In this document: positions 40,271 to 40,424 of the stretch, piece after piece
How positions within the stretch are numbered: the first letter of the stretch is position 1
Layout of the letters: the number at the start of each line of letters is the position of its first letter
Virus record (IMG/VR): IMGVR_UViG_2531839662_000025
From: a virus
Lineage: Duplodnaviria; Heunggongvirae; Uroviricota; Caudoviricetes
Strand: one strand, 5' to 3'
Length of the DNA stretch: 58,745 nt
The notes under the pieces: model-generated
The model's input: the letters and a program-made list of their open reading frames with translations, nothing else
Told to the model about the DNA's origin: nothing
Database searches by the model: none
Made by a program: the position numbers and the translations under genes

Positions 40271-40345
40271 TGGAGCGGGTAGCGGGAATCGAACCCGCAT
40301 CATCAGCTTGGAAGGCTGAGGTAATAGCCATTATACGATACCCGC
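40271..40345 (-). tRNA. tRNA-Gly (anticodon UCC)
   Basis: 75-nt cloverleaf read by hand: acceptor GCGGGTA, anticodon loop CTTCCAA, T-arm GGTTCGATTCC, 3' CCA. Confidence 0.85.
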
Positions 40346-40348
40346 ATA

Positions 40349-40424
40349 TGGTGCCGACTACCGGAATCGAACTGGTGACCTACTGATTACAAGTCAGTTG
40401 CTCTGCCTGCTGAGCTAAGTCGGC
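40349..40424 (-). tRNA. tRNA-Thr (anticodon UGU)
   Basis: 76-nt cloverleaf: acceptor GCCGACT, anticodon loop CTTGTAA, T-arm AGTTCGATTCC, 3' CCA. Confidence 0.85.

Follow-up and report, generated by a model that had tools for sequence, protein, structure and literature searches.

A pair of tRNA genes, separated by 3 nt and found in the late region of an Escherichia coli prophage, raises the question of whether the genes mark the site at which the prophage integrated or are cargo that it carries, and, if they are cargo, what the two tRNAs might do for the phage. The pair lies in a stretch of 58,745 nucleotides from a member of the Caudoviricetes (IMG/VR record IMGVR_UViG_2531839662_000025), the whole of which is referred to here as the window. 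Pairs of this kind are well known as cargo tRNAs in the interval between the Q gene and the lysis genes of lambdoid prophages, and annotations of this very sequence already exist in RefSeq and in several phage records. The original prediction, made from the letters of the sequence, was of a tRNA-Thr(UGU) and a tRNA-Gly(UCC) with 3-nt spacing; its coordinates, isotypes and anticodons agree with those given by ARAGORN, Rfam and PGAP, and the strand, which was missing from it, is minus. The module consists of the following:

40349..40424, minus strand: tRNA-Thr(UGU), 76 nt, CCA encoded (ARAGORN, Rfam, PGAP, alignment to K-12 thrU)
40346..40348, minus strand: inter-tRNA spacer TAT, 3 nt (sequence)
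40271..40345, minus strand: tRNA-Gly(UCC), 75 nt, CCA encoded (ARAGORN, Rfam, alignment to K-12 glyT)

These are the only two tRNA genes that ARAGORN calls in the 58.7-kb window, with anticodons tgt (Thr) and tcc (Gly) at position 34. Transcription runs from Thr to Gly on the minus strand, in the orientation of the late genes. tRNA scanning, the check proposed at the outset, recovered both genes with ARAGORN and with the Rfam model RF00005, where tRNA-Thr scores 69.8 bits (E=3e-13) and tRNA-Gly 65.6 bits (E=5e-12), well above the gathering score of 29 bits. Furthermore, PGAP annotates both genes in the RefSeq record of the near-identical E. coli UMNF18. An Rfam scan of positions 39600-40700 at a permissive threshold gave no score beyond the two tRNAs except chance matches. 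Both cloverleaves are intact, with whole stems and an encoded CCA, and the genes are not pseudogenes. From their near-identity to the host genes thrU and glyT, we infer that both tRNAs are expressed, processed and aminoacylated.

The prophage and its late region

The window is a P27-like E. coli prophage integrated at serT. It extends from a gene of the tail-fibre region, starting inside a DUF4376 gene, to the integrase, and the whole of it is collinear with the prophage of UMNF18, a porcine enterotoxigenic strain, at ~99.5% identity with a few indels; positions 39000-42000, which include the tRNA pair, are 100% identical. In UMNF18 the prophage is flanked by yccA and by serT/hyaA, its ends being yccA/integrase and serT/hyaA, and an intact tRNA-Ser gene (serT) is annotated at the junction, outside the window. 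About 18 kb separate the tRNA pair from the integrase end, and the pair shares its strand with the late genes. Because the attachment tRNA, serT, is outside the window and the pair is internal, the pair is cargo of the prophage, situated in the late operon, and not an attachment site. An origin of the pair in the bacterial chromosome or in an attachment site was likewise considered and rejected, as the window falls wholly inside the prophage on the UMNF18 map. The claim that the pair is prophage cargo thus holds, with the serT junction outside the window and late genes on both sides.

The order of elements on the minus strand is a Q-like gene, a pR'/tR'-like unit, a 65-aa ORF, a methyltransferase gene, tRNA-Thr, tRNA-Gly, a TerB gene, a DUF3927 gene, two holin genes and an M15 endolysin gene:

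42308..42862, minus strand: Q-like late-gene regulator (DUF1133; Pfam DUF1133 E=4e-100)
42119..42250, minus strand: pR'/tR'-like unit of promoter, short leader and terminator, directly 3' of the Q-like gene
40602..41648, minus strand: N6/N4 DNA methyltransferase (Pfam N6_N4_Mtase E=2e-43), directly upstream of the tRNA module
39202..39627, minus strand: TerB-family gene (Pfam TerB), the first protein gene 3' of the tRNA module
39053-39205, minus strand: DUF3927 gene (PGAP, ORFs)
38306-38963, minus strand: holins (PGAP, ORFs)
37926-38303, minus strand: M15 endolysin (PGAP, ORFs)

The pair had been described as flanked by a methyltransferase and a Q-like gene on one side and by lysis genes on the other, an arrangement that PGAP, Pfam and the open reading frames bear out, with the correction that ~640 nt of non-coding DNA and the TerB and DUF3927 genes intervene between tRNA-Gly and the holins. 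The Q-like gene scores 25.4 bits against the Pfam family Phage_antitermQ, just below the 26-bit cutoff, and its counterpart in phage vB_EcoS-683R6 is annotated as antitermination protein Q. The unit directly 3' of it ends in a terminator of the form GCCCGC-TTTTT-GCGGG followed by T8, at about 42119-42142, and the segment of ~42119-42250 is conserved after the annotated Q of vB_EcoS-683R6 as well as in loci that carry arrays of four tRNAs. Judged by this position and conservation, the segment probably represents pR' and tR', the late promoter and its terminator, of this family of Q proteins. RefSeq marks the methyltransferase gene as a pseudogene that carries an internal stop.

Several other features of the window were observed alongside the tRNA pair. 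An element of ~15 kb (~20309-35275), with its genes on the minus strand and its own integrase at ~33882-35105, interrupts the prophage terL gene, the fragments of which are found at ~19565-20308 and 35276-36303. Its genes include a DUF927 primase-like gene, an Icd-like gene and genes for SSB and PerC, together with genes for a major capsid protein, a prohead protease, a portal, a head-tail connector, an HNH protein, TerS and TerL. The element looks like a capsid-forming satellite of the PICI type or a small second phage; no direct repeats of 12 nt or more were found flanking it. An IS679 element (IS66 family, with tnpA, tnpB and transposase) is inserted at ~47472-50060 inside a DUF977 gene of the early region, and a hok/sok-type toxin-antitoxin unit at 44718-45043 on the minus strand combines a Hok/Gef coding sequence with a sok RNA (Rfam RF01794, 112 bits). 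Relative to the RefSeq sequence of UMNF18, the left arm of the window is ~98% identical and the right arm ~99.5% identical with small indels, and a segment of ~1.2 kb in the tail region (window positions 9353-10543) is unaligned. RefSeq marks frameshifts in many genes of the prophage, which is therefore probably defective.

Anatomy, occurrence and ancestry of the tRNA cassette

The two tRNA genes are embedded in a set of predicted regulatory and structural elements, which are, in the direction of transcription:

40486..40513, minus strand: predicted sigma-70 promoter, TTGAAG-16 nt-TATTAT then GCGC (consensus scan)
40428..40478, minus strand: structured 5' leader, starting at the predicted 5' end of the transcript and ending 3 nt before position +1 of tRNA-Thr (folds)
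40065..40150, minus strand: 3' trailer hairpin of ~27 bp, non-coding, within a conserved block at about 40059-40161 (flanks 40059-40165)
39998..40024, minus strand: terminator-like hairpin AACCGCCGCGCCAGGCGGTT followed by a T-run, closing the tRNA module (scan, sequence)

A promoter-like element of the form TTGnnn-16-TAnnAT is present in 35 of 35 distinct loci with a stand-alone tRNA pair, the spacers of which have diverged. In 31 of these 35 loci, 6-8 nt separate the end of the element from the leader helix, and in the remaining 4 the best-scoring −10 element ends 14 nt before it. Promoter-like matches are not enriched in the region, with 5 found and 5.4 expected in shuffled sequence, so it is conservation on which the predicted promoter rests. 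The leader is predicted to fold with an outer stem of GGUUCU/AGAACC (GGUUCY/RGAACC across homologues), a GA/GA internal loop, a G-rich inner stem and a variable apex. In an alignment of 22 distinct homologues, pairing is seen in 91.4% of cells, compared with 26-71% in slid controls, and there is covariation both at the closing pair (CG/UA/UG) and in the inner stem (GC/GU/AU). This helix is specific to the stand-alone Thr-Gly cassettes and is annotated nowhere. In the four-tRNA arrays, by contrast, a promoter of the form TTGCAA-17-TATTAT abuts the first tRNA, with a terminator before it and a short leader, which differs from the structured leader of ~55 nt that precedes the stand-alone pair.

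Downstream of the tRNAs, the trailer block is kept in 62 of 114 loci, in both array classes, and RNAalifold applied to 32 distinct sequences gives a hairpin of ~27 bp with some compensatory pairs. The trailer has no match in Rfam. An 86-aa open reading frame overlaps it (39992-40252), but has no Pfam match and contains a 2-nt indel among homologues, and the frame is therefore considered non-coding. A relationship to PasA and PasC, which are prophage small RNAs of enteropathogenic E. coli found near holin, TerB and tRNA genes, was also rejected: blastn and blastn-short comparisons of the window with the E2348/69 sequences of PasA, PasC and the intergenic region between them gave only chance matches of 10-17 nt elsewhere in the window. 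The trailer hairpin could be a processing site or an RNA of the 3'ETS type. Opposite the terminator-like hairpin of the minus strand, another on the plus strand (39953-39987) would complete a zone of bidirectional termination. A further non-coding block upstream of TerB (39734-39917), in which no gene is annotated, is conserved in about 35 of 114 loci. With its own predicted promoter and a terminator-like hairpin, placed downstream of tR', the cassette appears to have a moron-like layout.

The phage module can be recognised by its junction of Thr 3' end, TAT and Gly 5' end, GGTAGTCGGCACCA-TAT-GCGGG, exact matches to which occur in at least 120 viral contigs of IMG/VR. ARAGORN applied to the matches listed gives 56 stand-alone Thr-Gly pairs, 39 arrays of CAT-Lys(UUU)-Thr-Gly, 14 of CAT-Arg(UCU)-Thr-Gly, and a few other arrangements. 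In the loci examined, the Thr-TAT-Gly module stands alone or forms the distal half of a four-tRNA array, always between Q and the lysis genes, and the only anticodons in arrays at this slot are CAU, UUU, UCU, UGU, UCC and UAA, those of isoacceptors for A-ending codons. Among complete E. coli genomes, the query is found in 6580 places in 5421 genomes, with ~1,150 copies beyond those of the host operon, and the arrangement of methylase, tRNAs and TerB recurs in 39 genomes.

At least eight deposited phages carry the module. Temperate coliphages with Thr(UGU)-Gly(UCC) include phi467 (LN997803), vB_EcoS-683R6 (ON470595), vB_EcoM-606R7, vB_EcoS-689R5, PhiR47_1 and SerU-LTIIb (KU052038), in which a 154-nt pair with the TAT spacer, 97-98% identical, is placed between Q or the methylase and the holin on the late-gene strand. 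The immediate surroundings differ from phage to phage. In phi467 the pair follows stxAB and precedes a holin of the phage-21 type; in vB_EcoS-683R6 Q is directly upstream; and in SerU-LTIIb two copies of the module lie between the methylase and the holins, near the LT-IIb genes. Unlike these, the pair in the window has the methylase upstream and TerB and DUF3927 downstream.

The same slot holds other tRNAs in other phages. The ileZ-argN-argO arrays of Stx phages, like the two tRNA genes of phage 21 described below, occupy the same type of slot in late-operon orientation and supply isoacceptors for codons that are rare in E. coli. One published map shows tRNA genes in the interval from the methylase to stxAB; a search of the literature on ileZ, argN and argO gave nothing usable, and a review of the phages of Shiga toxin-producing E. 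coli mentions tRNAs only as integration sites. Lambdoid phage 21 carries a tRNA-Asn and a tRNA-Thr in the equivalent interval between Q and the holin, in late-operon orientation; these directly follow tR' with no separate promoter annotated, and the phage 21 tRNA-Thr is of a different lineage. The virulent phage T4 includes both tRNA-Thr UGU and tRNA-Gly UCC, the same two isoacceptors, in a cluster of eight genes, but there the sequences have diverged and the two genes are not adjacent; T4-like phages match the pair at ~83%, in two pieces. By analogy, the occurrence of the same isoacceptors in T4-type phages would fit a general phage demand for decoding of ACA and GGA.

The pair had also been likened to members of the host thrU-tyrU-glyT-thrT cluster without tyrU, and this comparison stands for the mature tRNA bodies. 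The phage tRNA-Thr is identical to K-12 thrU at 74 of 76 positions, with differences (U16C and U20C) only in the D-loop, and the phage tRNA-Gly is identical to glyT at 73 of 75, the difference being a compensatory change of an acceptor-stem pair from C6:G to U6:A. The anticodon arms are identical to those of thrU and glyT, and tyrU is absent, as stated; however, host thrT is clearly different in sequence from the phage tRNA-Thr, and the flanks are unrelated. Compared with the host thrU-tyrU-glyT-thrT-tufB operon, the phage module shares nearly identical mature tRNA-Thr4 and tRNA-Gly2 bodies with the same anticodons and an encoded CCA, but has no tyrU, thrT or tufB, and its single 3-nt spacer contrasts with host spacers of 8, 85 and 116 nt. 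Nor is the module related to the operon in its promoter, leader or trailer. Sequence comparison found no counterpart of, or similarity to, the host thrU promoter, its very short leader, tyrU or the spacers in the phage flanks, so that likeness to the operon is confined to the mature tRNA bodies; a recent capture of the host operon together with its flanks was rejected on these grounds.

Variation among copies is mainly at loop positions, as seen in 125 copies among the matches listed. Of the Thr alleles in these copies, 71 are identical to thrU and 25 to the allele in the window; the corresponding figures for Gly are 53 identical to glyT and 38 to the window allele. Details such as C16/C20 and U6:A66 vary from copy to copy. 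The possibility that the window Thr allele is a foreign chromosomal allele was discarded, since its 33-nt core is present in many unrelated bacteria; the allele is thus a widespread natural variant from which no donor can be read. Some copies have a switched anticodon on a thrU-like body. The first copy in SerU-LTIIb (1122-1194 of the locus analysed) has UCU and is annotated as tRNA-Arg, with G24A and A31G in addition, and two IMG/VR loci among the matches listed have UUU (Lys) with A26G.

Proposed codon supplementation and competing explanations

Comparison of codon usage in the late genes with that of the host had been proposed as a second check, and its outcome favours supplementation. Annotated coding sequences of the prophage (10,047 codons) were compared with 40 core genes of K-12 (15,040 codons). 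ACA occurs at 16.7 per 1000 codons in the prophage and 5.5 in the host core (odds ratio within Thr 3.2, p=4e-16), GGA at 15.7 and 6.9 (odds ratio 2.9, p=7e-15), and GGG at 14.9 and 9.3. In the late genes (6,631 codons), ACA has the largest absolute excess over the host of any of the 61 codons, at +10.9 per 1000, with GGA ranking 3rd, GGG 5th and ACG 7th. ACA, ACG, GGA and GGG are the codons read by the UGU and UCC anticodons, and it is these ranks that argue for codon supplementation. The evidence is correlative, and the host reference is a small one of 40 K-12 core genes. Nor are these the sole codons in excess, since ATA and AGA show still higher enrichment (odds ratios of 3.8 and 5.4), yet have no cognate tRNA in this phage. 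Richness in ACA and GGA extends to the PICI-like insert and to the early genes. In the host, tRNA-Thr4 (thrU) and tRNA-Gly2 (glyT) are isoacceptors of low abundance, each encoded by a single gene.

The explanation that we favour, and hold to be moderately probable, is that the pair are functional cargo tRNAs in a self-contained cassette of the late operon that supplements the decoding of ACA/ACG and GGA/GGG. The course of events that we infer, from transcription and processing through charging to a translational benefit for the phage, would be as follows. The cassette, made up of promoter, structured leader, tRNA-Thr(UGU), TAT, tRNA-Gly(UCC), trailer hairpin and terminator, and set between the Q-like gene with pR'/tR' and the lysis genes, would be transcribed from its own sigma-70 promoter, and during lytic growth would also be included in the Q-antiterminated late transcript. 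RNase P, RNase E and 3' exonucleases of the host would release the two tRNAs, with CCA ends already encoded in the genome. Given their near-identity to tRNA-Thr4 and tRNA-Gly2, the phage tRNAs should be charged by the host ThrRS and GlyRS, and the supply of isoacceptors for ACA/ACG and GGA/GGG, the codons most overused by the late genes, would be raised.

An alternative, which we consider unlikely, is counter-defence, whereby phage tRNAs replace host tRNAs cut by the nucleases of abortive-infection systems. The leading candidate for such a nuclease is P2-OLD, the effector of P2-lambda interference, which kills lambdoid-infected cells through cleavage of the anticodon stem of tRNA-ThrU, at paired CNG motifs (Govande et al., PMC12445682). 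That work identifies tRNA-ThrU as the primary lethal target of P2-OLD and argues that many phage tRNAs serve in the evasion of defence. It shows that cells are rescued by tRNA-Thr(UGU) genes of phages, among them the lambdoid phage 21, whereas over-expression of host thrU protects them little or not at all. The anticodon arm is where resistance maps, and resistant tRNAs differ from thrU in that the CNG motif (nt 28-30 / 40-42) is altered, the anticodon stem is shortened, or both (PMC12445682). The resistant Thr6 and Thr21 of that study have the same anticodon and host as the tRNA-Thr in the window, and Thr21 is also from the same lambdoid slot between Q and the holin. Furthermore, the arrays found here often also include Lys(UUU), a known target of PARIS, PrrC and OLD, and about 5 of the 125 Thr alleles among the matches listed carry G42Y/U43C, with loss of the 3' CNG motif and a shortened stem as in the resistant tRNAs.

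The anticodon arm of the window allele, however, is unfavourable to this explanation. Thr6 and Thr21 have altered stems, and Thr21 is of a different lineage with a changed stem, whereas the window tRNA-Thr has the UGU anticodon on an unaltered thrU anticodon arm, with CUG and CAG both intact; most phage Thr alleles (71 of 125 among the matches listed) are identical to thrU throughout. Counter-defence is weakened because the window allele keeps this OLD-sensitive arm. In a variant of the explanation, tRNA-Gly(UCC) might itself be a target of P2-OLD or of a similar nuclease. By our reading of the sequence, both glyT and the phage tRNA-Gly fit the OLD motif, with C28-A-G30, C40-U-G42 and A37, but tRNA-Gly(UCC) is not named as a substrate in the main text of PMC12445682.

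A broader version of the same idea treats the Thr-Gly cassette as self-mobile and constitutive, with the leader and trailer as functional RNAs, and takes as its main role a counter-defence that tops up tRNA-ThrU, and perhaps tRNA-Gly(UCC), against OLD-like nucleases. The leader might then protect the 5' end or guide processing, and possible roles of the trailer would be those of an RNase III site or of a regulatory RNA derived from a 3'ETS. We regard this combination as distinctly improbable.

The three explanations that follow are less likely. Lysogenic conversion, in which a constitutive cassette boosts acquired genes rich in ACA and GGA, such as toxin genes and the genes of prophages and islands, to the benefit of the host and not the phage, would be in keeping with the moron-like layout (the conserved predicted promoter, the terminator-like hairpin and the position downstream of tR'), with the proximity of the same module to toxin genes in phi467 (stxAB, adjacent) and SerU-LTIIb (LT-IIb, nearby), and with the ACA/GGA-rich composition of the PICI-like insert and early genes. 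It is nonetheless very doubtful for this locus, as the neighbours of the pair in the window include no toxin gene and no evident virulence gene, and the proposed benefit is shared with supplementation in the lytic phase and hard to separate from it.

More doubtful still is the proposal that the tRNAs are neutral hitch-hikers, acquired as part of a tRNA operon like that of the host and retained, with no role in fitness, because they lie in the recombination hot spot between Q and the lysis genes. The slot is indeed highly mosaic, accommodating different tRNA sets, toxins, esterases and methylases, and the prophage is decaying, with frameshifts, the IS679 insertion and a terL gene interrupted by another element. 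Set against this, the cloverleaves are intact and the sole stem change is compensatory, variation is mainly confined to loops, and at least 120 viral contigs share the module, in which the spacing of the promoter-like element is kept and the leader and trailer structures covary.

Finally, a role in integration, as the attachment site of the prophage, as the target of another element or as the replacement for an inactivated host tRNA, can draw on the general knowledge that att sites are commonly tRNA genes and on a precedent for tRNA-dependent lysogeny in mycobacteriophages (PMC10865867), but is refuted by the prophage map, in which the ends are at yccA/integrase and serT/hyaA with the junction tRNA-Ser intact, late genes enclose the pair, terL and the DUF977 gene and not the tRNAs are where other elements have inserted, and the isotypes Thr and Gly do not match serT.

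Implications for lambdoid prophages

Codon supplementation by the cassette would conform to textbook phage biology, which is for the most part confirmed here in that small tRNA sets in the hot spot between Q and the lysis genes match the codons overused by late genes; the locus provides a quantified example, in which the four codons of the two cargo tRNAs are within the top seven over-demanded codons of the late genes. To the known sequence, the analysis adds a conserved predicted promoter, a leader helix, a trailer hairpin and a predicted terminator of the cassette, features that are annotated nowhere. The locus is also linked to the 2025 finding that P2-OLD kills via tRNA-ThrU (PMC12445682). 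If the cassette were after all a self-mobile counter-defence unit, the G42Y/U43C alleles and those with anticodons switched to UCU or UUU would be snapshots of an arms race. The comparison leads to a prediction for the alleles in circulation, namely that the common allele, with its host-identical arm, should not resist OLD, and that the rare G42Y/U43C alleles might.
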